From a virus: a stretch of DNA of 64,000 bases. The notes under the pieces are model-generated. The model saw only the letters and a list, made by a program, of their open reading frames with translations, had not been told where the DNA came from and ran no database searches. The position numbers were made by a program, and so were the translations under genes. Below are positions 31,107 through 59,239 of the stretch, one piece after another (the first letter of the stretch is position 1; each line of letters begins with the position of its first letter). Where the stretch lies: IMG/VR virus record IMGVR_UViG_3300020463_000009, positions 32,001 through 96,000 of that record, one strand, 5' to 3'.

Positions 31107-32291
31107 ATGGCCGAGACAGACAATAAAGTAGAGGCTTTGGAAAAAGAAGCGGTAGTAGAAGCTAGTGCTAACCCACAAGCTGACGCTCCGAAGAAGAATG
31201 CTGTACCGGCTGAACCTTCAAAAATGTCCAACGAGGCAGAAGATTTAGGTCCAGCGGTTGTAAAACCTACAGATTCTAATCCAGACGCTACGAAAAAAAC
31301 TAAACAAGTTTCTGGCGATGCTCAACAAAAATCTGCTGGTCCTGCTGACGCAATGCCAAAGATTAAAGAAGAGTCGGAAGAAACTAACGAAGGTTCGGAA
31401 GAAATCAAAGAAGGCGAAATGCCAAAAGCAGCTCTTGACGCTCTTAAAAAACATAATGATAAGAAAGAAGACAAGTCCGAGAAATCAGAATCAGATGAGA
31501 AAAAATCTGAAAAAGAAGGATACGGAATGAAGTCAGCTTCTTACAAAATGAAAAAAGAGGAAGTTGATGAGCATATGGACGCATTAGTAGCTGGACAAGA
31601 TGATTTATCCGAAGAATTTAAAACAAAAGCTGCAACCGTTTTTGAATCAGCAGTCAATTCTAAAGTAAAAGAAATTGCTGAAACAATGGATGCAGATTAC
31701 AACACGAAATTAGAGCAAGAAAGTGGAAAAGCAAAAGAAGAGTTAACTGAAAAAGTTGATTCTTACTTGTCTTACGTTGTTGAAGAGTGGATGAAAGAAA
31801 ACGAAATCGCTCTTGAACGAGGAATTAAAGGCGAGATTGCTGAAGACTTTATTACAGGTCTTAAAAAACTTTTCTCTGAACATTATATTGATGTTCCAGA
31901 TGAGAAGTATGACGTTTTAGAAGCGCAAGCAGCTAAAATTGAAGAACTGAATAAAAAGTTAAACGAGCAAATTGAATCGAATGTTGAACTAAACAAAGAC
32001 AACGCAGAGAAAACTAAAAACGAAGTTTTAGCTGATGTTGCTAATGATTTAGCAGACACTCAAAAAGAAAAATTTGCTAAACTTGCTGAAGAAATTGAAT
32101 ACTCAAACGCAGAAGACTTTAAGAAAAAGTGTGAGACTATTAAAGAATCATATTTTGGACAAAAGAAAGAAGCGACTGAGTCTTTAGATGATGTGGCGGC
32201 TGATGGTGAACTTTCAAACGAAGATTTATCAAAAGCAATGGCTGCTTACACTGCCGCTATAAGCAAAACAAAAGATATTAAAATATCTTAA
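31107..32291 (+). CDS. gp22: Prohead scaffolding protein gp22
   Basis: LSEEFK.KA.TVFE.AV, VD.YL.YVVEEW..EN..A...G, YIDVP; acidic coiled coil before the major capsid gene. Confidence 0.93.
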   Translation: MAETDNKVEALEKEAVVEASANPQADAPKKNAVPAEPSKMSNEAEDLGPAVVKPTDSNPDATKKTKQVSGDAQQKSAGPADAMPKIKEESEETNEGSEEIKEGEMPKAALDALKKHNDKKEDKSEKSESDEKKSEKEGYGMKSASYKMKKEEVDEHMDALVAGQDDLSEEFKTKAATVFESAVNSKVKEIAETMDADYNTKLEQESGKAKEELTEKVDSYLSYVVEEWMKENEIALERGIKGEIAEDFITGLKKLFSEHYIDVPDEKYDVLEAQAAKIEELNKKLNEQIESNVELNKDNAEKTKNEVLADVANDLADTQKEKFAKLAEEIEYSNAEDFKKKCETIKESYFGQKKEATESLDDVAADGELSNEDLSKAMAAYTAAISKTKDIKIS

Positions 32292-41464: not shown

Positions 41465-42763
41465 ATGACTTATTCGTGGAAGAAAGGTATGTCTATTGAC
41501 GACCAATGGCAAAGTTGGCAAGATAACAATCCAATAGATAAATTACCTGATATAGATACAGATACTTTAAAAGAGGCAGTAATAAAAGATTTATCTTATG
41601 TGTCTGCTATGGATGTAAAAGAATATACACTATATCAAAAATGGTGTGAAGTACACGACAAATATCCTACTGAAGAAGTCAATAGTTTCTTTGACGATAA
41701 ACCAGCATTAAAAAATCCTGACCAAGGGGCGCTCCTTGCTGAAATCAAAAACAACTTTTGGTTACCAGAAAACCAAGAAGAATACCTTGATTTAGAACCT
41801 GAATTATTATGGACAGATGGTGATGATATTAAATCTATAACAGGTAGTAAAATGCCTGCTATATGGAATGGTATGAGAACGTTCTTATCTACTATGAAAA
41901 ACAATAGTAATATTGGTAGAAATTTAAACTTTTTAATCAGAGATAAAAAATCAAAAAAATTACTTGGTGTTACCTGTATGTCTAGTGATTTCCTAGACCT
42001 TACACCTAGAGATAATTATATTGGTTGGGAAAGAGTTGCAAAAACTCAAAGAATGATTAATCATACTTGTATCGGGTCTACCATTGTACCAATTCAGCCT
42101 TTAGGGTATAACCTGGTAGGTGGCAAACTATTGGCACTTTTATGCCTATCTGATACGGTTGAGAAGACCTGGGAATACCAATACAAGGATAAACTAGTAG
42201 GGGTAACCACAACAAGTCTATATGGAAAAACCAAAGAAATACCATTATCACAATACGATAGATTAAAATACTGGAAGAAAATGGGTTGGACTGCTGGTAG
42301 TGTATCTTATGAGCCATTATTACCAACTAGAAAAATGATACAACAATGGTTAATGAAGAATCACACATACAAATACTTTGAATGGTATGTAGCAAAGAAA
42401 GACACAGGACAACCACATAAAAGAGACCATAGAAATAGAAGTCATACCTTTACATACAATCAATTAGGTATAGATAAGAAACTAATTAAGTCTGAACACG
42501 CTAGAGGTATCTATTTTGGTGAATTATATAACAATACTAAAGAATTTTTAAGAGAAGAAATCAAGGCAGACCAATTAGAAAGAAAATTTGATAATTCAGT
42601 AGAGGCCTTGACAGATATATGGAAGAACAAGTATGCTAAAAAGCGATTAGCCAGTTTAACTAAACAGAATAGAATATCTAAAGAAACCCATTTTTATGAT
42701 GACATTATCTATATGAATTGGGAAGATACTAAAAGTAAATATTTACCACAAGTAGGGAGATAA
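41465..42763 (+). CDS. DUF4338/DruA-like protein, paralogue 1
   Basis: GR.L.F...D......LG....S....L..RD.YIGW, P..P...L.GGKLLALL..S, TTTSLYG, SQY.RL, G.T.G motifs recalled from DUF4338 (DruA) proteins. Confidence 0.7.
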   Translation: MTYSWKKGMSIDDQWQSWQDNNPIDKLPDIDTDTLKEAVIKDLSYVSAMDVKEYTLYQKWCEVHDKYPTEEVNSFFDDKPALKNPDQGALLAEIKNNFWLPENQEEYLDLEPELLWTDGDDIKSITGSKMPAIWNGMRTFLSTMKNNSNIGRNLNFLIRDKKSKKLLGVTCMSSDFLDLTPRDNYIGWERVAKTQRMINHTCIGSTIVPIQPLGYNLVGGKLLALLCLSDTVEKTWEYQYKDKLVGVTTTSLYGKTKEIPLSQYDRLKYWKKMGWTAGSVSYEPLLPTRKMIQQWLMKNHTYKYFEWYVAKKDTGQPHKRDHRNRSHTFTYNQLGIDKKLIKSEHARGIYFGELYNNTKEFLREEIKADQLERKFDNSVEALTDIWKNKYAKKRLASLTKQNRISKETHFYDDIIYMNWEDTKSKYLPQVGR

Positions 42764-48225: not shown

Positions 48226-49443
48226 ATGACATTAAATATGCCACAAAACACACAAAGGCTAGACACAGCTTTTGATATTCAACCAACTTTAAAAACTATT
48301 AACGACAATTCAATTATTGTAAATGTAAGTAATACAGATAGATTTACAGACGAGAATTTAAAAACACAGGATAGACTTATTGTCAAAGAAGCATATCCTG
48401 AATTATATGATAGAGAAGATAAGGGATTATTTTTTCAAAGATTTGAGATTAGAGATATAGATACATTATTTGACAATCTAAAAAACAAATACGGTAAGCA
48501 AAAAGGTAGAGCTACAACTAACCAAAAGATGGTTGGTATTAGAAACGATATTTTAGAAAATGGTTTTAAACTAAAATATAACCCTATAGCAATAGCTGAA
48601 TATGCAGATGGTTCAATTAAATTTTTAACAGGTAGAACTAGGGTGGAAATCCTAAAAAAGACTTGCGATTTTAAAAATGCTATTGTAGCCGTTTATTCAG
48701 TAAAAGATAATAAAACTTTAGCAACAAATAACTTAAAGTTTAATCTAATTGATTCTCCAGTAGGTGTTGCTACAACTGGTGATGTTATTGCAGTAGGTCA
48801 AGAACTAATTGATGACGGAGATATAACAAAAAATTTAGATGAGATAAATGCTTGGGTAAATGAAGTTACCGAAGGCAGTCATTTTACAGACAATACTAAA
48901 AACATTATTGCTCAATCACTTTTAAATAACAATTCTTCAAGACCTTATATCAACTCTTGGACACCTGAAAGGGTACACGATTGGATGATAGAACAAGGTT
49001 ATAAGAAAGCTGGTGACCAATATCCTAGTAGTGGTTTATCTTCTAAAGAATCAGTTTACGTACAAACTAAACAAGGTCAAGAACATTTAAATCAATACTT
49101 ATATGTGATAGGTGCTTCTTCATCTTGGAGTAAAAATCTATCCAGAGTATCAGCAATAGCAAACAATACACATTTTGCTGGTAAATCTATTAGAGTTATT
49201 TTACATACTTCAACATTAGATACATTAAATACTATTCAAAAGTTAGAAGAACAATATAACGATAAGATTGAAAAACACAATTTAAATTATAATCAAGAGT
49301 TATTAAATATTGGTAACTCTTACTATACTAGAGAAATTAACGGTGAGGTTGTACTACCTATTATTAATACAAAAGTGGTATTATATGCAACGTTACCAGT
49401 TATAGGCAAGGTACATAAACAAAATGAACTTGTCGTATTATAA
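48226..49443 (+). CDS. Hypothetical protein with a possible ParB-like domain
   Basis: I...I..NGF.....PI.......G....L.GRTR...L resembles a ParB N-terminal core. Confidence 0.45.
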   Translation: MTLNMPQNTQRLDTAFDIQPTLKTINDNSIIVNVSNTDRFTDENLKTQDRLIVKEAYPELYDREDKGLFFQRFEIRDIDTLFDNLKNKYGKQKGRATTNQKMVGIRNDILENGFKLKYNPIAIAEYADGSIKFLTGRTRVEILKKTCDFKNAIVAVYSVKDNKTLATNNLKFNLIDSPVGVATTGDVIAVGQELIDDGDITKNLDEINAWVNEVTEGSHFTDNTKNIIAQSLLNNNSSRPYINSWTPERVHDWMIEQGYKKAGDQYPSSGLSSKESVYVQTKQGQEHLNQYLYVIGASSSWSKNLSRVSAIANNTHFAGKSIRVILHTSTLDTLNTIQKLEEQYNDKIEKHNLNYNQELLNIGNSYYTREINGEVVLPIINTKVVLYATLPVIGKVHKQNELVVL

Positions 49444-49450
49444 TCCACCA

Positions 49451-49479
49451 TTGACAATTATGGTAAGATTTGATATATT
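49451..49479 (+). promoter_or_regulatory. sigma70-type promoter of the tRNA-gp45 operon
   Basis: TTGACA-17 nt-TATATT with extended TG, 7 nt before the tRNA. Confidence 0.75.
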
Positions 49480-49486
49480 AAGAAAT

Positions 49487-49560
49487 GCGGCTATCGTATA
49501 AAAGTATTACGGCGGGTTACCAACTCGCAGACGTAGGAGCGTTACCTACTAGCCGCTCCA
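49487..49560 (+). tRNA. Non-canonical tRNA-Gly, anticodon ACC
   Basis: Acceptor GCGGCTA/TAGCCGC with T73 and encoded CCA; anticodon arm GCGGG-TTACCAA-CTCGC; T arm GTAGG-AGCGTTA-CCTAC; D arm GTAT-AAAAGT-ATTAC. Confidence 0.88.
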
Positions 49561-49584
49561 TTAAATTATGAGGAGAACTATATA

Positions 49585-50247
49585 ATGCAATTAACAAGTG
49601 ATACCCTTGCTATACTAAAAAACTTTTCTGATATAAACCAGAATATTTTAGTTAAGCCAGGCAATACAATACAAACTATCTCTACATTGAAAAACATATT
49701 AGCACAGGCTGATATTAAAGAGAAGTTTGAAAGCGAATTTGCCATCTATAATCTACCTGAATTTTTGAGAGCATATGATTTATTTGATAAGTCAGAGTTA
49801 AAATTTAACGGCGCTCAAAATATGGTAATTAAAGACGCTAACGGCAGACAATCAATTAAATATTATTTTGCAGATAAATCGGTTGTTGTTTCACCAACAA
49901 AGACGATTACTATGCCAGACAAATATGTAACCTTTACGCTTAAGAAAGAGAACTTTAATAAACTTATGCGAGGTGTTACCACTCTGAATTTACCAGACAT
50001 TGCTGTAAAAGGTGATGGTAAAGAAATTAGTATAGTTGCAATTGATAAGAAAACACCATCAAACGACTACTCAATAGTTGTTGGCGAATCAGATAAGAAG
50101 TTTACTGCTTACTTTAAAACAGAAAACTTTAAAATGATTGAAGACGATTATGATGTAGCTATTTCAAAGGCGAAAATAAGTCATTTCATAAACAAGAGTA
50201 AACCAATTCAATATTGGATTGCTATTGAACCTGATTCTGAATTTTAA
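49585..50247 (+). CDS. gp45: Sliding clamp gp45
   Basis: T..ILKNFS.IN..I, F.IY.L.EFL, YWIA.E.DS. Confidence 0.95.
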   Translation: MQLTSDTLAILKNFSDINQNILVKPGNTIQTISTLKNILAQADIKEKFESEFAIYNLPEFLRAYDLFDKSELKFNGAQNMVIKDANGRQSIKYYFADKSVVVSPTKTITMPDKYVTFTLKKENFNKLMRGVTTLNLPDIAVKGDGKEISIVAIDKKTPSNDYSIVVGESDKKFTAYFKTENFKMIEDDYDVAISKAKISHFINKSKPIQYWIAIEPDSEF

Positions 50248-50261
50248 ATCAGAGGTATATT

Positions 50262-51206
50262 ATGAGTGATTATTTGTGGGTTGAAAAATACCGTCCTAAA
50301 AAAATACGTGATTGTATCTTACCTGAAGATACTAAAAAAACTTTTACAGAGTTTTTAAAAACAAAAGAAATACCTAATTTATTACTATCAGGCACAGCTG
50401 GTACTGGTAAAACTACCGTTGCTCGTGCTTTATGTGAAGAGTTAGGTACAGACTACATTATTATCAATGGTTCAGATGAAGGCCGACAGATTGATACGTT
50501 AAGACATAAGATTAAAAACTTTGCTTCTACCGTATCATTAACTGAACACTCGGCACATAAAGTTGTAATAGTAGATGAGGCAGATTATATGAACGCCGAA
50601 TCTGTACAACCTGCTTTAAGAAACTTCATTGAGACTTTTCATAGTAATTGTAGATTCATTTTTACTTGCAACTATAAGAGCAAGATTTTACCAGCATTAC
50701 ATAGTCGTTGTACCGTTATTGATTTTGCAATCAGAAATGGTCAAAAAGTAAAGACAGCACAGGCATTACTTAAACGACTAGGTAAAATACTAGAACAAGA
50801 AGAAGTCAAGTACGATAACAAGGTACTTGCCGAACTAATCCAAAAGCATTATCCAGACTTTAGACGTACTATCAATGAGCTTCAAAGATACTCCGTCAGA
50901 GGTGAGATTGATAGTGGTATATTGTTTAGTCTATCTGAAGCCAACACAAAAGAGTTGATTAAGATATTAAAAGAAAAAAGATTTAACGATATGCGAAAAT
51001 GGGTGATAAATAATCTTGATAAAGAACCATCTTCTTTATTTTCAACAATATATAACTTATTGTACTCGAATTTAGAGGGTAATTCTGTACCACAAGCGGT
51101 GTTAATTATCGCTGGGTATCAATATAAATCAGCCTTTGTTGCTGACCAAGAGATTAATATGGTCGCTTGTTTGACAGAGATAATGGCAAATTGTAAGTTT
51201 AAGTAA
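50262..51206 (+). CDS. gp44: Clamp loader large subunit gp44
   Basis: LWVEKYRP, G.AGTGKTT.A.ALC, INGSDE, DEADY, SRC, PDFRR.INELQRY. Confidence 0.97.
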   Translation: MSDYLWVEKYRPKKIRDCILPEDTKKTFTEFLKTKEIPNLLLSGTAGTGKTTVARALCEELGTDYIIINGSDEGRQIDTLRHKIKNFASTVSLTEHSAHKVVIVDEADYMNAESVQPALRNFIETFHSNCRFIFTCNYKSKILPALHSRCTVIDFAIRNGQKVKTAQALLKRLGKILEQEEVKYDNKVLAELIQKHYPDFRRTINELQRYSVRGEIDSGILFSLSEANTKELIKILKEKRFNDMRKWVINNLDKEPSSLFSTIYNLLYSNLEGNSVPQAVLIIAGYQYKSAFVADQEINMVACLTEIMANCKFK

Positions 51207-51207
51207 A

Positions 51208-51360
51208 ATGATATTAGCATTAAGAAAAGTAATTGTAAAGATAAGAATGGCTTATGCAGATATAAGAGGTCACCACGGTAAGAGGTGGAACTATGAGCCA
51301 GGTGATTATTATATGGGCAGAGCGAATGTACGAACTAAAAGATTATCTAAAAGCGATTAA
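51208..51360 (+). CDS. Small basic hypothetical protein (50 aa)
   Basis: MILALRKVIVKIRMAYADIRGHHGKRWNYEPGDYYMGRANVRTKRLSKSD; fills the gp44-gp62 gap. Not in the ORF track. Confidence 0.55.
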   Translation: MILALRKVIVKIRMAYADIRGHHGKRWNYEPGDYYMGRANVRTKRLSKSD

Positions 51361-51721
51361 CGAATCCAAAACTCCACTATTAGATAGTGATGATAAAACG
51401 TGGGAAAAGAAGTACCCACCGTTTGTAATCAATCGTTGTCTATCTATGTTCTATGATACCATAATGCATAGCAATGAAATGAATGGATTACACTTCCTAC
51501 CAAAACGTATGCAATTTCACTATTTAATAAATAGTATCCGAAAGAAGAAGCGATTTGGTGGTAAGTGGCTTTCACAAAAGAAAGTCAAAGACCTTGAGGT
51601 AATCAAAGAGTATTATGGCTATAGTAATCAAAAGGCAAAAGAAGCTCTTAACCTACTTTCAGATGACCAAATTGAAAATATAAAATTAGGCCTGAAAAAA
51701 GGTGGGAGAAATAAAAAATGA
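51326..51721 (+). CDS. gp62: Clamp loader small subunit gp62
   Basis: L.DYL..IN..K, Y.PF..NRCLS...DT....NEMN, RK.KRF..W, YYGYS..KA..AL..L; probable start MYELKDYL at 51326. Confidence 0.93.
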   Translation: MYELKDYLKAINESKTPLLDSDDKTWEKKYPPFVINRCLSMFYDTIMHSNEMNGLHFLPKRMQFHYLINSIRKKKRFGGKWLSQKKVKDLEVIKEYYGYSNQKAKEALNLLSDDQIENIKLGLKKGGRNKK

Positions 51722-52164
51722 GTGAAGATACTATTAGTTGGTCACCAGAGCAAATGCTTGAGGTCACCATAAAACAACCAGATGACTTCTTAAAAGTCAG
51801 AGAAACCCTTACAAGAATTGGTGTAGCAAGTAGAAAAGATAAAACTCTTTTTCAATCTTGTCATATACTACACAAACAAGGGAAATATTACATAACACAC
51901 TTCAAAGAACTATTTGCTTTAGATGGTAAAAAATCAACATTGGTTGAAAACGATATACAGAGAAGAAACACAATTGCTTTATTACTACAAGACTGGAATT
52001 TAATTGATATTGTTGATAAATCTAAAGTAGAAAATAAAGCGCCATTATCACAGATTAAAGTTTTACCTTATAAAGAAAAAAAAGAGTGGACATTAAATGC
52101 TAAATATAATATAGGTAAAAAACCCGAAACAAAAGATGGCGAAAATGCAGGTCAGCAAGTTTAA
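51718..52164 (+). CDS. regA: Translational repressor RegA
   Basis: PDDFLKVRETLTRIGVAS, QSCHILHKQG.Y.I.HFKELFALDG, RRN.I..LL..W.L. Confidence 0.97.
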   Translation: MSEDTISWSPEQMLEVTIKQPDDFLKVRETLTRIGVASRKDKTLFQSCHILHKQGKYYITHFKELFALDGKKSTLVENDIQRRNTIALLLQDWNLIDIVDKSKVENKAPLSQIKVLPYKEKKEWTLNAKYNIGKKPETKDGENAGQQV

Positions 52165-53530
52165 AGATTACATAACGGAAGAAAAAGAAGGTAAACCCTT
52201 TTTAAGGTTACTCATTATTACAGATGAACCTGAAGAGGCAAAAACTTTTCATACTGCCGATAGATTACAGGAAGAATGTGATAAGTTAGGCTATCCACAT
52301 TATCTATTTAAACTTACTGGTGGTTATACAAGTTATGAGAATGGTATTCGTAAGTTTCATAACAAAGATGATAAAAAAGGTTTTGAAGTAGGCGCAATGA
52401 CCGTTGCTATTGTTCGTGGTAGTATTACACGAAAAGATAGTTGGATGGACTTTGTATCTATATTAGAAAGAGCAAACGCAACTCTCGTAAATCCTAGAAC
52501 TACAATTAATATGTGTGCTGATAAGTATAGAACAGCATTAAGACTTGCAGATTATGGTTTGACGCAACCTATGACCAAGTTAATAAATGACCCCGAAAAA
52601 TCAAATGAAATAGTTGACGAGGCAAAAATTAAGTTTCCTTTAATTATGAAAACATTAAGAGGTAGTAAAGGTGTTGGTGTATTGTTTATTGATAGTCCAA
52701 AAGGATTAGATTCTATTGTTCAATTAATACACAAACAAGATGAAGATACAGATTTATTAATACAAGAATATATTAAAACAGAATATGATGTAAGAGTACA
52801 TATTTTAGGTGGTAAATTTTTAGCGGCTATGAAACGACCTGTAATCGAAGGAGATTTTAGGTCAAATGTTTCTCAAGGTTCTAAACCAGAAAATATTAAA
52901 TTAACAGAATTAGAAATAGAACATTGTTTATTGGCTTCAAAAGCAGTTGGTGGTTATTGGACTGCTGTTGATTTTATACCTAGTAAGAATAGAGAAAAAG
53001 AACCACCTTATTTTCTTGAAGTAAACTCTTCACCTGGTACAGAGGGTATTGAAGACGCTACTAAAAAGAACATTGCAAAAGAAGTTATACAACATTTTGC
53101 CAATGGAGAGAACAGATATTCTGTCCCGACAGAATGTGGTTTTAAGGAGATTTTAACCATAAAACCGTTTGGCGAATTAATTTCAAAATTTGATACGGGT
53201 AATTCAGGAATGCCAGTTATTCATTCAGATAAAATGAAAGTTGATGGTAAAAAAATTACTTGGTCATTATTAGGTAAAACAATCACTAGTGATATTGTAC
53301 GTAAAGAAGAAATATCAGTTGGTGGTTTAAGAGACTATGACGAAGATAGATATGTGGTAAAATTAGATGTTGAATTTGCAGGTGGCCATTATAAAGATGT
53401 AGAATTTACCATAGATAATAGAGAAGATAGAACTCCTATCTTACTGGACCGTGCATTTATGAAGAGATTAAACGTTATGGTCAATCCACAAAGAAAATAC
53501 GTTATAACAACCAAATACAGCATTGACTAA
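52136..53530 (+). CDS. RimK-family ATP-grasp ligase fused to a retropepsin-like (RimB-type) protease
   Basis: ADK, FP.I.K...GS.G.GV, LIQEYI...DVRV, FRSN...G, VD, EVNSSPG; C-terminal KFDTGN ... ILL.R.FM......VNP. Confidence 0.85.
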   Translation: MAKMQVSKFKDYITEEKEGKPFLRLLIITDEPEEAKTFHTADRLQEECDKLGYPHYLFKLTGGYTSYENGIRKFHNKDDKKGFEVGAMTVAIVRGSITRKDSWMDFVSILERANATLVNPRTTINMCADKYRTALRLADYGLTQPMTKLINDPEKSNEIVDEAKIKFPLIMKTLRGSKGVGVLFIDSPKGLDSIVQLIHKQDEDTDLLIQEYIKTEYDVRVHILGGKFLAAMKRPVIEGDFRSNVSQGSKPENIKLTELEIEHCLLASKAVGGYWTAVDFIPSKNREKEPPYFLEVNSSPGTEGIEDATKKNIAKEVIQHFANGENRYSVPTECGFKEILTIKPFGELISKFDTGNSGMPVIHSDKMKVDGKKITWSLLGKTITSDIVRKEEISVGGLRDYDEDRYVVKLDVEFAGGHYKDVEFTIDNREDRTPILLDRAFMKRLNVMVNPQRKYVITTKYSID

Positions 53531-54203: not shown

Positions 54204-56673
54204 GAATGTAATTGAACACAAAGGCAAACTTCTTATTCGTGGTGTATTAAACGGAAAAGATTACAAAGATAAAATAGATTTTGGTCCTACTCTCTACGCC
54301 TTATCACAGGAAAAATCAGAATTTAAAAATCTACAAGGTCAGTATTTAAAACCTATAACATTTAAAGATATTAGGTCTACTCGTCAATTCAAAAAAGATT
54401 ATGGAGCACAATCACCATTATTTGGTTTAGAACGTTATCATTATCAATACATTGGCAAAAATTATCCAGAGGCCATACAATGGTCAAAAGAACATATCAA
54501 AATATTCACATTAGATATAGAAACAACCTGTGAAAATGGTTTTCCAGATGTAGAAAATCCTATTGAAGAGTTGTTATGTATCACGGTAAAAAATCAATCT
54601 AATAAACAAATATTAACTTGGGGTGTTGGCGACTTTCATACAGATAGAACAGACGTTACCTATGTCAGATGTAGAGACGAAAAACAATTAATGTTTGAGT
54701 TTATGAAATTCTGGTTGAAAAATTATCCTGATGTTATCACAGGCTGGAATACAAAATTCTTTGACTTACCTTATTTAATGAATAGAATTAAATTGATTGC
54801 AGGTGATAAAGTTGCAAACAGAATGTCGCCTTGGAACTTAATCAATCGTGATGAGATTGTTGTAAGAGGCAGACCACAAACCGTTTATCAACTATTTGGT
54901 ATTGTAATGTTAGACTATCTTGATTTGTACAAATGGTTTATACCAACAAGACAAGAGAGTTATAGATTAGATTTTATTGGCGAACTAGAACTAGGCCAAA
55001 AGAAACACGAAAACCCTTTTGAAACATTTAAAGATTTCTATACTAAAGACTTTCAAAAGTTTGTAGATTACAATATTCAAGATGTAGAAATTGTTGATTC
55101 ATTAGAAGATAAGTTAGGTCTTATTGACTTATCATTAACCGTAGCATATGAATCTAAAGTAAACTATGATGATATATTTTCGCAAGTAAGAGTATGGGAC
55201 ACATTGATTGCAAACCATTTAATGAAAAAGAATATATGTGTACCACCAAGAGAAGAACATAGTAAAGAAACAAAATACGAAGGTGCTTACGTAAAAGAAC
55301 CTCAACTAGGCGGCCATAATTGGATTGTGTCGTTTGATATAAACTCACTATATCCACATATTATTATTCAATATAATATTTCACCGGAAAAAATTATCGG
55401 TTCGTCTAGTAAAGGTGTATCTGTAAATAAAATGTTATCACATACACCACTTGACTTTTTAAAAACAGAGGGTGCTTGTTTAACACCTAATGGTGCAATG
55501 TTTAAAAATGATAGTCAAGGGTTTCTACCTGAAATGATGGAAACAATGTACAATGAACGTGTAATTTACAAGAAAAGAATGTTAAAGGCTAAAAAAGAAT
55601 ATCAAAAAACAAAAGACCCTAAACTTGTAAAAGAAATTTCACGTTGTCATAATATTCAATGGGCAAGAAAGATTGCCTTAAACTCAGCTTATGGTGCAGT
55701 AGGTAATCAATACTTTAGATACTATGATGTAAGACAGGCAAGTGGTATTACAACTGCTGGTCAATTTATTATTCGTTTCATTGAAGAAAAAATGAATACA
55801 TATCTAAATCAAATATTACAAACTAAAGATAAGGTTGATTATATTGTGGCGTCTGATACAGATTCAATTTATGTTTGTTTAGATAAATTGGTAGAGAAGA
55901 CTTGTAAAGATAAAACAAATGACCAGATTACAGATTTTATTGGTAAAGTTTGTGATAATAAATTAGAACCATATATTGAAAAATGTTTTGAAGAACTAGC
56001 TGACTATTCAAATGCTTTTAAAAATGCAATGGTAATGAAACGAGAAGTTATTGCCAATAAAGGTATTTGGGTTGCAAAGAAAAGATATATGTTAAATGTT
56101 ATTGATGAAGAAGGCATTAGACTTGCTGACCCTAAACTTAAACTTATGGGTATTGAGGCAGTTAAATCATCAACACCACAGGTTTGTAGAGGTAAAATTA
56201 AAGACGCAATCAAAATCATTATGGGTAAAAGTGAAAATGAACTACACGATTTTGTTGCAAACTTTAAAAAAGAATTTAAAGAATTGCCACCAGAGGCAAT
56301 TGCTTTTCCTAGAAGTTGTAATAACTTGAGGAAGTACCGTGATAACAATAGTATTTTTATCAAAGGTACTCCAATTCACGTCAAAGGTGCGTTGATATAT
56401 AATCATCAAATAAAAGAGTTTGGTTTACAAAATAAGTTTCCTTACATACAAGAAGGCGACAAGATTAAGTTTATCAAATTAATAGAGGCAAATCCTTTTA
56501 AGTTTGATGTTATAAGTTATATAACTAGTTTGCCTACGGAGTTTAAATTAAAACAATACGTAGATTATGAAACACAATTTGAGAAGACCTTTTTAGACCC
56601 TATGAGATTTATTCTTCAGGCTATAGGTTGGGAACACGAACCAAAGGCAACGTTGGAGGCATTTTTTGGATGA
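54190..56673 (+). CDS. gp43: Family B DNA polymerase gp43
   Basis: DIET exonuclease I, TGWN..FFD.PY, SFDINSLYP, K..LNSAYG, SDTDS, KKRY. Confidence 0.98.
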   Translation: MNFYKNVIEHKGKLLIRGVLNGKDYKDKIDFGPTLYALSQEKSEFKNLQGQYLKPITFKDIRSTRQFKKDYGAQSPLFGLERYHYQYIGKNYPEAIQWSKEHIKIFTLDIETTCENGFPDVENPIEELLCITVKNQSNKQILTWGVGDFHTDRTDVTYVRCRDEKQLMFEFMKFWLKNYPDVITGWNTKFFDLPYLMNRIKLIAGDKVANRMSPWNLINRDEIVVRGRPQTVYQLFGIVMLDYLDLYKWFIPTRQESYRLDFIGELELGQKKHENPFETFKDFYTKDFQKFVDYNIQDVEIVDSLEDKLGLIDLSLTVAYESKVNYDDIFSQVRVWDTLIANHLMKKNICVPPREEHSKETKYEGAYVKEPQLGGHNWIVSFDINSLYPHIIIQYNISPEKIIGSSSKGVSVNKMLSHTPLDFLKTEGACLTPNGAMFKNDSQGFLPEMMETMYNERVIYKKRMLKAKKEYQKTKDPKLVKEISRCHNIQWARKIALNSAYGAVGNQYFRYYDVRQASGITTAGQFIIRFIEEKMNTYLNQILQTKDKVDYIVASDTDSIYVCLDKLVEKTCKDKTNDQITDFIGKVCDNKLEPYIEKCFEELADYSNAFKNAMVMKREVIANKGIWVAKKRYMLNVIDEEGIRLADPKLKLMGIEAVKSSTPQVCRGKIKDAIKIIMGKSENELHDFVANFKKEFKELPPEAIAFPRSCNNLRKYRDNNSIFIKGTPIHVKGALIYNHQIKEFGLQNKFPYIQEGDKIKFIKLIEANPFKFDVISYITSLPTEFKLKQYVDYETQFEKTFLDPMRFILQAIGWEHEPKATLEAFFG

Positions 56674-57155
56674 AAAAATTTAAGAATAATATAGAAGACT
56701 TTTTTAAATGGGTAAAAGGTACAGAGTTAGTTGAACTTGATGACATTGATGTATCTGAAGACCCGGTAAGACCTGAATTAACATTAGGTTTTAGAATTAC
56801 TAACGGCAGAAAAATATTTGGTCTAAAATATAATGATGAGATAGAGGCAATAGTTTGTGTTGCATTATGTCCTGAAGTACCACACACGGTAAGAGAAATG
56901 GATTATATGTCTCAAGCGGCCAATCAAGAAGACCAAAGAGGCGAAATAGTTGTTGCATACACCGTATGGTCAAGAAAAAGAGGTGCAGGCAAAGAGATAA
57001 TTAATAAGTTGGCTGAATGGGCAAAACAAAATAATTTTCAAAGAGTAGTTACCTTATCACCATTAACACCAATGGCTACACATTTTCATATAAAGAATGG
57101 TGCAAAACAAATTAAAGTAAGTGAAGATACTCAAAATTTTGAATATAAACTATGA
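56670..57155 (+). CDS. GNAT-fold (malonyl-CoA decarboxylase-like) protein
   Basis: VAYTVWSRKRGAGKEII (motif A-like), VTLSP, FHIKNGA; likely ATG at 56670 overlapping the gp43 stop. Confidence 0.55.
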   Translation: MKKFKNNIEDFFKWVKGTELVELDDIDVSEDPVRPELTLGFRITNGRKIFGLKYNDEIEAIVCVALCPEVPHTVREMDYMSQAANQEDQRGEIVVAYTVWSRKRGAGKEIINKLAEWAKQNNFQRVVTLSPLTPMATHFHIKNGAKQIKVSEDTQNFEYKL

Positions 57156-57301
57156 CAACATACGACATAATAATATTTTATCTAGTTTTATTTTGGTCTT
57201 TTAAGATAGGTACATTTTTTGCCTATTCAAATATAAAAATATGGCAGTTTTTATTCTTATGTTTTTTACTTAAAATGGTAGGTATGGCTTATGTTTCCTA
57301 A
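57152..57301 (+). CDS. Small hydrophobic membrane protein (49 aa)
   Basis: MTTYDIIIFYLVLFWSFKIG...; coupled to both neighbours. Not in the ORF track. Confidence 0.5.
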   Translation: MTTYDIIIFYLVLFWSFKIGTFFAYSNIKIWQFLFLCFLLKMVGMAYVS

Positions 57302-57821
57302 TAAAAAATATGGTGTGATATATGCAGACCCACCTTGGTATTTTAAATCAAGGTCAAAGAAAGGTGAGGGTAGAAATCCTAATCAACACTATAATTGTAT
57401 GGAGTTATTAGATATTTGTAATCTACCTGTAAAAAATATATCTGCTGACAATTCAGTTTTATTAATGTGGGTTATAGACCCTATGTTAGACCTTGCATTT
57501 GATGTAATAGAAGCCTGGGGTTTTCAATACAAGACCGTAGGTTTTACTTGGGCGAAAACAAATAAAACTAATATGGGTATGTTTACCGGTTTAGGTTACT
57601 GGACTAGAGGCAATCCAGAAATGTGTTTACTTGCAACAAAAGGTAAACCAAAAAGAATTAACAAAGATGTAAAACAATTAATAGTTTCACAAAGAGAAGA
57701 ACACTCAAAGAAACCTTTATTACATAAAGAAATAGAAAGACTTGTACCTGGCCCCTACATTGAATTGTTTGCAAGAAAAAAACCTTATGATAATTGGGAT
57801 TATTGGGGTAATGAAGTATGA
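57291..57821 (+). CDS. MT-A70 family adenine methyltransferase
   Basis: IYADPPW, HY..M, L.MW, WGF.YKT..F.W.K, G.G.WTR.N.E.CL, EHSKKP, ELFAR, WGNE. Confidence 0.93.
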   Translation: MFPNKKYGVIYADPPWYFKSRSKKGEGRNPNQHYNCMELLDICNLPVKNISADNSVLLMWVIDPMLDLAFDVIEAWGFQYKTVGFTWAKTNKTNMGMFTGLGYWTRGNPEMCLLATKGKPKRINKDVKQLIVSQREEHSKKPLLHKEIERLVPGPYIELFARKKPYDNWDYWGNEV

Positions 57822-58063: not shown

Positions 58064-58158
58064 TTATAGATTTATTACTGGTTGCCTTATTCATAAAAAT
58101 GTGTTATATTTTACCCTTATTTTTATTATGGAAATGGAATAATGAAGACCCTAACTAA
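58060..58158 (+). CDS. Tiny hydrophobic protein (32 aa)
   Basis: MIIDLLLVALFIKMCYILPLFLLWKWNNEDPN; ATGA overlap with the upstream stop. Confidence 0.35.
   Translation: MIIDLLLVALFIKMCYILPLFLLWKWNNEDPN
58082..58110 (+). promoter_or_regulatory. sigma70-type promoter
   Basis: TTGCCT-17 nt-TATATT with extended TG, upstream of 58142. Confidence 0.55.
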
Positions 58159-59239
58159 AGAAGAAGCACTACATTGTGCTAACGTATTTACAAATTATTT
58201 TGGCCAGTTTAGTCGTATAGACCAGTATATGCGAGACCAAAAAATGGCACAGATTGAAACTATACCAGCACCTCTTCCTGGTATGGGTTTAGATTCAGAT
58301 ATGTTTGATGAATTTGATATGTCACCAGAGGTTATGGATTTAGAAGTTGTTGAATTAGATAATGATACTTGGGACACTTGTATTAATATGATATCAAGTC
58401 ATAGTAATATGGTTTCTATACCAGGTAAAACATTAAAACTGGCAGTAAAAGAAAAAAATACAGGTAAGTTTGTAGGTTTTATGAGATTTGGTTCACCTGT
58501 AATTAATATGAAACCTAGAAATACTTTATTAGGTAATGTACCTGAACTTACATCATTTAATAAAACTTCTATTATGGGTTTTGTTATAGTGCCTACACAA
58601 CCATTTGGTTTTAATTATCTAGGTGGTAAATTGTTAGCCGCCTTATGTTGTTCTCACGAAGTCAGAGAAAAACTAAACAAAAAATATAATATGAATTTAG
58701 TAATGTTTGAGACTACTAGTTTATATGGCAATTCAAAGTCAGCAAGTCAATATGATGGTATGAAACCTATGTTAAGATATAAAGGCTTAACTGATAGTGA
58801 TTTTATACCTATGATACACGGCAAACCATTTAAAGATTTACAAAATTATGTTGAAAGTAGAACTGGTCATTTAGTACCAGAAAATGCCTCTAGTAGAAAA
58901 CTTAAATTAACAAATGCAATTATTGGTTTAATTAAAAGGTCAATAGATGGTGATGATTTAAAAACTTTTAATACTACAATACTTAATGCTAAAAAATTAA
59001 CTGAACAAAAAAGATATTATGTATCTAATTATGGTATCGAAAATTATATTGATATAGTAAATGGTAAAACAGATAAGATTGTTAGAGCACCTAACTATGA
59101 AAGATTCTACGATAACGAACTTATAGAATGGTGGCGTAAACTTGCTACTAAAAGATTTTATAAATTAAAAGAAGATGGTCGTTTAAGAAATAATTTAGAG
59201 ATATGGACAAGAGACAGCGAGATAGACATAATAAGATAG
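58142..59239 (+). CDS. DUF4338/DruA-like protein, paralogue 2
   Basis: PGKTLKLAV....GK.VGF..FGSP.....PRN, IVPTQPFGFNYLGGKLLA..CCS, FETTSLYG, SQYDG.K, G.T; clearly homologous to 41465..42763. Confidence 0.7.
   Translation: MKTLTKEEALHCANVFTNYFGQFSRIDQYMRDQKMAQIETIPAPLPGMGLDSDMFDEFDMSPEVMDLEVVELDNDTWDTCINMISSHSNMVSIPGKTLKLAVKEKNTGKFVGFMRFGSPVINMKPRNTLLGNVPELTSFNKTSIMGFVIVPTQPFGFNYLGGKLLAALCCSHEVREKLNKKYNMNLVMFETTSLYGNSKSASQYDGMKPMLRYKGLTDSDFIPMIHGKPFKDLQNYVESRTGHLVPENASSRKLKLTNAIIGLIKRSIDGDDLKTFNTTILNAKKLTEQKRYYVSNYGIENYIDIVNGKTDKIVRAPNYERFYDNELIEWWRKLATKRFYKLKEDGRLRNNLEIWTRDSEIDIIR

Follow-up and report, generated by a model that had tools for sequence, protein, structure and literature searches.

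Background

Glycine tRNAs with adenosine at the wobble position (A34) are nearly absent from cells (PMC4928997), and tRNA-Gly(ACC) has been described as 'banished from nearly all organisms' (PMC6720975). Here we describe a tRNA-Gly(ACC) gene with an altered elbow, found in a stretch of 64,000 nucleotides (nt) which spans positions 32,001 to 96,000 of the IMG/VR virus record IMGVR_UViG_3300020463_000009 (hereafter the window). The gene had been noticed from the letters of the window alone, and the two papers support the near-absence of A34 from glycine tRNAs which that sequence-only reading had asserted.

The closest canonical gene is the tRNA-Gly(UCC) annotated in the T4-type Erwinia phage IT22 (Tevenvirinae; L172:101-174). 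It is also phage-encoded, 74 nt long and provided with an encoded CCA end, its first 16 nt are identical to those of the window gene, and it shows the same D-stem architecture and the same A/T-rich D arm position. Unlike the window gene, it has a canonical D-loop, AATGGTA (G18 and G19), a canonical T-loop, TTCGATT (U54, U55, C56 and A58), a G51-C63 pair instead of A51-U63, and the anticodon UCC instead of ACC.

Two described systems use glycyl-tRNA outside the ribosome. The non-proteinogenic tRNA-Gly species of staphylococci (NP1-3 of S. aureus, Ia and Ib of S. epidermidis) are cellular genes of Gram-positive cocci with a UCC anticodon, whose partners are the FemXAB enzymes of the cell-wall bridge; they show TGC or TGT for TTC in the T-loop, an altered D-loop, and a weak T-stem with A49-U65, U50-A64 and A51-U63 (PMC7826273). 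The second system is Mom of phage Mu, a GNAT protein shown in 2026 to move glycine from Gly-tRNAGly to the N6 of adenine in double-stranded DNA (PMC13219725). Mu itself encodes no tRNA.

A tRNA-Gly gene with an altered elbow in the window

The gene forms a complete cloverleaf with an encoded CCA end (Table 1), and the coordinates and named bases of the sequence-only reading were all correct on direct reading, as were its GlyRS (glycyl-tRNA synthetase) identity elements and the A51-U63 pair. The established identity set of the bacterial enzyme, G1-C72, C2-G71, G3-C70, U73, C35 and C36, is complete. The minimum-energy fold is the same cloverleaf (-27.3 kcal/mol, z = -3.2); 200 shuffled sequences all folded less well. 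The elbow departs from the canonical set (G18, G19, U54, U55, C56 and A58): the window gene has A18, G19, A54, G55, C56 and U58, so that only G19-C56 is kept.

A low score in tRNA finders had been expected, and ARAGORN reported no tRNA in the 64-kb window; an Rfam scan of the whole window, with fast filters and at the gathering threshold, found nothing either. The Rfam tRNA model RF00005 run in full on positions 49400-49650 (251 bases) nevertheless gave 45.2 bits (E = 8e-9), well above the gathering score, which is 29, with a match to the full length of the model (1-71). The combination of fast Rfam filters and an odd T-loop thus hides the family from routine annotation. The gene is the sole tRNA found in a search of the whole 109-kb phage record, which is about 76% complete.

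A family conserved in marine T4-like phages

The source phage is a virus of SAR11, the most abundant bacterium in the ocean; among cultured phages, its closest relatives are two T4-like phages of Pelagibacter, Mosig EXVC030M and HTVC008M. Mosig has the gene in the same place, annotated as a 31-residue hypothetical protein. In HTVC008M it lies between cobS and the phage S21 gene and has no annotation in GenBank or RefSeq; ARAGORN does call this copy a tRNA-Gly(acc). A pelagimyophage survey with tRNAscan-SE listed HTVC008M with 0 tRNAs (PMC7029224). We found no description in the literature of a natural, conserved tRNA-Gly(ACC) or of this family in phages, and the published genomes leave it unannotated. 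Because a family abundant in the ocean is missing from annotations, censuses of phage tRNAs are incomplete, as is the prediction of hosts for SAR11 phages.

Three pattern scans of IMG/VR yielded several hundred contigs, from which about 190 genes with some 87 distinct variants were parsed. A gapless alignment of 72 distinct sequences (20 helix pairs, 1440 cells) shows 99.4% standard pairs; 12 of the 20 pairs are changed on both sides, in 295 cells. None of 500 shuffles reached the observed values, sliding the partners lowered pairing to 34-51%, and RNAalifold independently predicted the identical cloverleaf from the family alignment. Decay is excluded because the stems pair and covary across the 72 homologues, and the covariance alignment which had been proposed to support the argument against decay bears that argument out. 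That the window sequence is a decaying pseudogene or a chance cloverleaf would agree with its being missed by ARAGORN and by the filtered Rfam scan; this explanation is ruled out by the covariation, and the score with the full Rfam model and the presence of the gene in more than 190 contigs, with abundant compensatory change, leave it practically no probability. The window gene is certainly a genuine tRNA-Gly gene under selection.

Invariant in the 72 sequences are G1-C72, C2-G71, G3-C70, G4-C69, U73, U8, the D stem, A14, G19, C35, C36, A37, A38, G53-C61, G55, C56, U59 and A60, and nearly so U32 and U33, although some of these positions had been fixed by the search patterns. A scan which specified only the D arm returned T-loops that were all NGCNNTA, or TGCGATT in four distant members; since no other T-loop class was obtained, G55 always accompanies A18. 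Relative to canonical T4-type genes such as that of IT22, the family differs at positions 18 (G to A) and 55 (U to G). Positions 54 and 58 vary across the family (A/U, G/G, U/U, U/A or C/A). The sequence-only reading had described the elbow as a set of compensatory changes: the co-occurrence of A18 and G55 and the retention of G19-C56 hold for the family, while the exchange of a U54-A58 for an A54-U58 reverse-Hoogsteen pair is ruled out as a family rule by these relatives. In the structure that we propose, A18 with G55, G19-C56 being kept, would be an alternative tertiary solution fixed in the tRNA-Gly lineage of marine T4-like phages, and the elbow would retain the outer G19-C56 platform on which the ribosome and RNase P stack. 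The A18/G55 elbow is a rare natural rewiring of a tertiary contact that ranks among the most conserved in RNA, and it is maintained by selection in hundreds of phage contigs.

A link between the altered elbow and the ACC anticodon is not supported: the same elbow is found with ACC (87 genes), UCC (84 genes) and GCC (13 genes), and in four contigs two family genes, one with UCC and one with GCC, lie 2.8 kb apart. Among family genes with a normal 7-nt anticodon loop, C34 is absent and G34 is rare. Nor is A34 supported as a unique trait of single origin, the best tree having six changes between ACC and other anticodons, of which well-supported branches force at least two. In 97% of the contigs the anticodon loop retains its 7 nt, with U33 and A37.

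Some members depart from this pattern. In L108, L116, L152, L118, L124 and L162 the anticodon loop has 6 or 5 nt (TCCCAA, TACCAA or TCCAA, for example) and the stems are intact; these loops may have arisen from sequencing errors in runs of T, or the variants may be real and unable to decode. As an argument against decoding they were set aside, because they occur in 6 of 194 contigs only, are mostly deletions of one T and are possible sequencing errors. The distant members L175, L186, L190 and L212 have the T-loop TGCGATT, in which G55 stands with a canonical A58, together with a G.A mismatch at 50-64 and C37.

Other tRNAs on the family contigs (Pro, Arg, Leu, Asp, Thr and Ala) are detected by ARAGORN. 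Judged by detection with this program, which finds them and misses the window gene, the oddity appears to be specific to glycine. The tRNA array of L130 (IMGVR_UViG_3300037780_000085) includes another A34 tRNA, tRNA-Thr(AGU), and a tRNA with a CUA anticodon called tRNA-Pyl by ARAGORN, and in L104 a tmRNA-like gene lies beside the odd tRNA-Gly.

Glycine codons and proposed decoding by A34

The reading that we prefer, tentatively and at somewhat less than an even chance, is that the tRNA is an extra decoder of GGU codons with an unmodified A34. The SAR11 genomes used for comparison were reached with a 16S probe, and codon use was taken from long open reading frames (ORFs). The glycine codons of the window are 0.74 GGT, 0.14 GGA and 0.013 GGG, whereas Pelagibacter HTCC8051 uses 0.45 GGT and 0.42 GGA. 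Phage and host hardly differ in the boxes for Ala, Val, Thr, Pro, Ser and Leu. Within the family, 86 ACC loci use GGT at 0.70 and GGA at 0.13, against 0.57 and 0.24 at 80 UCC loci (Mann-Whitney p ~1e-12), and the boxes other than Gly are about equal between the two sets. The phages also prefer CGT in the CGN box (0.58-0.65 against 0.33 in the host, the latter from 58 codons). The skew towards U-ending codons is confined to the Gly and Arg boxes, and for both an A34 tRNA is available during infection, HTCC8051 having a tRNA-Arg(ACG) together with UCG. Its genome gave 33 tRNA matches, among them a single tRNA-Gly(GCC) and a single tRNA-Gly(UCC), each of which has a canonical elbow and G51-C63. 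A search of the same genome with the 74-nt gene gave no match, in this one genome and without a positive control.

In three near-complete SAR11 genomes (HTCC8051, HIMB4 and HIMB1412; loci L252, L243 and L280, and L368:1348-2532) the TadA, PF14437 and PF00383 models matched only the RibD deaminase domain. The TadA model gave a weak match at one place per genome: RibD in HTCC8051 and RibD-sized frames of 368 residues in HIMB4 and HIMB1412. The PF00383 deaminase model found no match in the phage. Because no TadA appeared in the search of the three genomes, A34 is taken to be unmodified; inosine at position 34 is unlikely, and SAR11 may decode with unmodified A34 like the Mollicutes that lack TadA. 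Unmodified-A34 tRNAs read U-ending codons well and others less well. The window tRNA is like Mycoplasma capricolum tRNA-Thr(AGU), Mollicutes tRNA-Arg(ACG) and E. coli tRNA-Gly C34A in that no TadA is involved, and differs in that the natural cases are Thr and Arg tRNAs of reduced cellular genomes. E. coli tRNA-Gly with A34 is active in elongation (PMC4928997), and it was able to read the whole GGN box, GGA being the worst (Boren 1993, cited in PMC3711424 and PMC4928997).

In this mechanism, charging of the tRNA by the host GlyRS is proposed because all the bacterial Gly identity elements are invariant. A34, remaining unmodified, would form a Watson-Crick pair with GGU on the ribosome, the other GGN codons perhaps being read less well, and tRNA(ACC) would supplement the single tRNA-Gly(GCC) of the host, which reads GGU by G:U wobble only. 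Decoding accounts for the anticodon and for a codon skew that is specific to Gly, as well as for the pairs of UCC and GCC genes and the retained anticodon loop and G19-C56. As a decoder of the dominant GGT codons, an alternative already considered in the sequence-only reading, the tRNA agrees with the codon data no less than it does as a glycyl donor. A conserved tRNA-Gly(ACC) contradicts the rule that excludes A34 from glycine tRNAs, and offers a natural system for asking why the rule exists.

Several observations weigh against decoding. The close UCC relatives L096, L079 and L094 share the GGT bias, and the link between anticodon and codon use fails a phylogenetic control which, with only 1-5 independent pairs on the tRNA tree, has no power. 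On the family tree the wobble base 34 changes seven times, as do freely varying positions (9, 26, 44, 45, 48, 54 and 58, 5-11 times), and positions 32, 33 and 35-38 change 0-1 times. GGU is not rare in the host, which weakens the usual argument that a phage tRNA makes up for a scarce one. In four metatranscriptome runs, two short contigs of relatives at 90-95% touch the tRNA (X16 record 3 and X17 record 6); both enter the promoter spacer and may reflect DNA carry-over or read-through, so that they are uninformative on expression, and no difference is listed at 49519, which has no bearing on inosine at position 34. Finally, decoding leaves the changed elbow and the changed EF-Tu-binding pairs unexplained, and the latter provide further points on the same side.

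Calculated EF-Tu binding

The contribution of the T-stem to EF-Tu binding was computed from Table 3 of PMC3239215, whose terms are exactly additive. The calculated term of the window T-stem is -9.4 kcal/mol, and all the computable ACC relatives lie between -9.2 and -9.7 kcal/mol (HTVC008M, -9.6). The staphylococcal non-proteinogenic tRNAs give -9.5, whereas the two host tRNA-Gly species give -10.6 and -11.0 and that of IT22 gives -10.6 kcal/mol. Since the tRNA-Gly class means are -10.8 (UCC) and -11.0 (GCC) kcal/mol (PMC3239215), the predicted EF-Tu binding of the window tRNA is weaker than the class mean by over 1.3 kcal/mol. In addition, the 51-63 pair is never G-C in the 72 sequences. G55, the loss of G18 and a T-stem weak for EF-Tu are three hallmarks of the staphylococcal tRNA-Gly species that avoid the ribosome.

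The resemblance to those tRNAs, proposed in the sequence-only reading from the loops and A51-U63, is real and closer than had been noted. The window gene shares with them G55 (which excludes pseudouridine), an altered D-loop GG, U50-A64, A51-U63, a nearly equal EF-Tu term and the full GlyRS identity (PMC7826273, PMC3239215). It is unlike them in its ACC anticodon, in the retained G19-C56, in a G-C pair at 49-65 and in belonging to a phage of a Gram-negative host.

These features were also considered in terms of defence, in which the elbow, the T-stem and the anticodon loop would make the tRNA-Gly insensitive to, or a decoy for, a factor of the host or of a competitor that cleaves or modifies the tRNA-Gly of the host. 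Such a factor might be a tRNA nuclease, or a GNAT toxin like TacT/AtaT2, by which Gly-tRNAGly is acetylated, and the phage tRNA would ensure that glycine decoding is kept during infection. That glycine alone is odd among the tRNAs of the contigs, as far as detection by ARAGORN goes, and that many phage lineages have conserved the elbow variant, would agree with it; moreover, GNAT toxins specific for Gly-tRNAGly exist, and the structure of TacT with acetyl-Gly-tRNAGly (7f36) was among the fold matches. However, SAR11, with its streamlined genomes, has no known system that targets tRNA-Gly, and none was found; the window gives no sign of such a conflict, and the weak EF-Tu T-stem would be left unexplained. 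We regard evasion of this kind as improbable.

A possible glycyl donor outside translation

The sequence-only reading favoured a tRNA that is charged with glycine and diverted from the ribosome. In this model the tRNA is charged by GlyRS, its weak T-stem and altered elbow hold it off EF-Tu, and its glycine is used by a phage enzyme, possibly in addition to translation; we consider it on the whole unlikely, though a serious competitor of the decoder reading. It explains the changes of the elbow and of the EF-Tu-binding pairs at once: G55, the loss of G18 and the T-stem term match those of the staphylococcal tRNA-Gly, as opposed to the host and T4-type values. It is also in line with a wobble base as labile as the free positions, next to GlyRS identity bases that never change, and with the apparent co-transcription of the tRNA with DNA replication genes, and it has a phage precedent in Mom, a GNAT that uses Gly-tRNAGly on DNA (PMC13219725).

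The candidate enzymes are two GNAT-fold proteins with a DruA/DUF4338 domain (Table 1), which would act like Mom; a published description counts DUF4338 among the GNAT domains (PMC10853773). For the 432-residue DruA-like protein, a high-confidence model with a predicted local distance difference test score of 93 has as its top structural match Mom (8bv8_B; Z 9.6, root mean square deviation 4.0, 170 aligned residues). The next matches are ordinary GNATs (Z 8.0-8.8, about 145 aligned residues) and FemA (8.0), so that the gap to Mom is less than one Z unit. DruA-like genes number two in the window, two in HTVC008M and one in Mosig, and they occur in 9 of 14 long records with the tRNA family, these two phages included. 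The two paralogues, with the small GNAT and the MT-A70 methylase, possibly form a DNA-modification module. The resulting proposal resembles the Mu system in being a phage process that uses Gly-tRNAGly off the ribosome through a GNAT enzyme, here suggested by the genes and the model. It differs in that the DruA-like proteins are not of the Mom family by sequence and in that Mom takes all the host isoacceptors, so that no dedicated tRNA is needed (PMC13219725).

Other comparisons speak against a Mom-like enzyme. An hhalign comparison of the DruA-like alignment with Mu Mom gave a probability of 0.9%, that is, no link at the level of sequence, and the PHROG families differ (phrog_19197, of unknown function, against phrog_1384 for Mom). 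The Z-score of Mom is within about one unit of those of generic GNATs, Foldseek against the PDB gave only weak GNAT matches (E >= 0.02), and a PDB sequence search with the DruA-like protein returned nothing meaningful. In the ESM Atlas the nearest named cluster, 'GNAT-phage-like' PF22559, lies at 0.87, which can be taken as a lead only. Furthermore, DruA-like genes are also found in about 25 Synechococcus phages without the tRNA family.

At the level of the phage, a search of the 109-kb record with the Fem-type transferase model PF02388 found nothing at E <= 1, an absence that is not final because the record is incomplete, and the Mom family model PF25680 found no match at E <= 10. The donor model lacks a demonstrated partner and leaves the codon skew unexplained, and the retention of a 7-nt loop with U33 and A37, together with UCC and GCC pairs in one phage that resemble a decoding set, also speaks against it. 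We know of no glycine-derived DNA modification for these phages. In its specific form, in which the tRNA is the phage's own non-proteinogenic tRNA-Gly and a dedicated donor for a Mom-like modification of phage DNA or another target by the DruA/DUF4338 proteins, we hold the model to be rather doubtful. If glycyl donation were true, a virus-encoded tRNA would be linked to tRNA-dependent DNA modification; if it proceeded via DruA, the tRNA would be the first encoded by a virus and devoted to a non-translational reaction, and the DruA family would acquire a function.

The present analysis adds a quantitative estimate of EF-Tu binding, a host that apparently lacks TadA, a wobble base that is labile on the family tree, the comparison of DruA with Mom, and the near-leaderless spacing of the promoter.

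Promoter, transcript and neighbouring genes

The TTGACA/TATATT promoter proposed upstream of the gene was confirmed; it matches the consensus at 11 of 12 positions and has a TG extension, and its -10 box ends 7 nt before G1. A promoter of this type is found in 29 of the 44 distinct ACC upstream regions, with a gap of 7-8 nt between the -10 box and G1 in 25 of the 29. Since the start site in bacteria commonly lies some 7 nt downstream of the -10 box, the primary transcript should begin at G1 or 1-2 bases earlier and the tRNA probably has little or no leader, as judged from this spacing. In the HTVC008M subgroup the tRNA must be processed, because a terminator-like hairpin lies just upstream of it.

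In the decoder reading, the host RNA polymerase would transcribe the tRNA early from its own sigma-70 promoter. A start at or just before G1 would leave little or nothing for RNase P to trim, and the tRNA would come first in the transcript of the clamp and clamp-loader genes, from which it would be released at its encoded CCA end. A near-leaderless module of promoter and tRNA would be an unusual route of tRNA production for a bacterial virus. No terminator-like site was found in positions 49200-49800, and the genes from gp45 to regA are apparently co-transcribed with the tRNA.

Table 1. Features of the tRNA-Gly(ACC) gene, its promoter and the related genes in the window
Feature	Position	Strand	Description
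tRNA-Gly(ACC) gene	49487..49560	+	74 nt; G1 49487; discriminator U73 (T) 49557; encoded CCA 49558-49560
Acceptor stem	49487-49493 with 49550-49556	+	7 perfect pairs; U8 present; read from sequence
D arm	49496-49510	+	3 Watson-Crick pairs plus U13.U22
D-loop	49500..49506	+	AAAAGTA; A in place of G18, G19 retained; (nearly) invariant in 72 relatives
Anticodon arm	49512-49528	+	Read from sequence
Anticodon loop	49517..49523	+	TTACCAA; anticodon ACC 49519-49521
Variable region	between anticodon arm and T arm	+	4 nt; read from sequence
T arm	49533..49549	+	Stem GTAGG/CCTAC (G49-C65, U50-A64, A51-U63)
T-loop	within 49533..49549	+	AGCGTTA (A54, G55, C56, G57, U58, U59, A60)
Early promoter, sigma-70 type	49451..49479	+	TTGACA 49451-49456; 17-nt spacer; TG-extended TATATT 49474-49479
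Spacer	49561..49584	+	24 nt, no terminator; gp45 ribosome-binding site GAGGAG 49570-49575
gp45 sliding clamp	49585-50247	+	Pfam PF09116
gp44 clamp loader	50262-51206	+	Pfam PF00004/PF21328
gp62-like clamp-loader A subunit	51293-51721	+	Pfam PF16790
RegA translational regulator	51718-52164	+	Pfam PF01818
DruA/DUF4338 protein 1	41465-42763		Pfam; 432 aa; flanked by peptide deformylase and MazG
DruA/DUF4338 protein 2	58142-59239		Pfam; between gp43 and UvsX
Small GNAT and MT-A70 adenine methylase	56628-57155 and 57291-57821		Adjoining DruA-like protein 2

This arrangement raises the explanation that the cloverleaf is a cis-acting, tRNA-like element, a processing or stability signal for the mRNA of the replication genes and not a working tRNA. 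It would account for an element that begins approximately at the transcription start, with the conserved promoter spacing described above, and that has the gp45 ribosome-binding site within 24 nt and no terminator between. However, what follows the promoter-tRNA module varies from phage to phage: in HTVC008M it is the gene for ribosomal protein S21, in others a different ORF. The module is a gene in its own right because the downstream genes differ in this way. Moreover, the conserved GlyRS identity elements, anticodon loop and CCA end would be needless for a mere processing signal, and we consider a role in cis very improbable.

The gene order around the tRNA is Hsp20, an ORF of 405 residues, the tRNA, gp45, gp44, gp62-like, RegA and a RimK-like ATP-grasp protein. 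The 405-residue ORF (48226-49443), directly upstream of the promoter, has no Pfam or PHROG match and neighbours the tRNA in 12 of 179 related loci. Just after regA, positions 52136-53530 encode the RimK-like ATP-grasp protein, of 464 residues with a C-terminal part like a Zn protease; a RimK-like ATP-grasp gene is found near the tRNA in 46 of the 86 ACC loci. In L002, L029, L060, L109, L170 and others, an inverted repeat that is absent from the window, GGCGTTCC ... GGGACGCC, encloses the -35 box, and may be the terminator of the upstream gene overlapping the promoter, or a regulatory hairpin.

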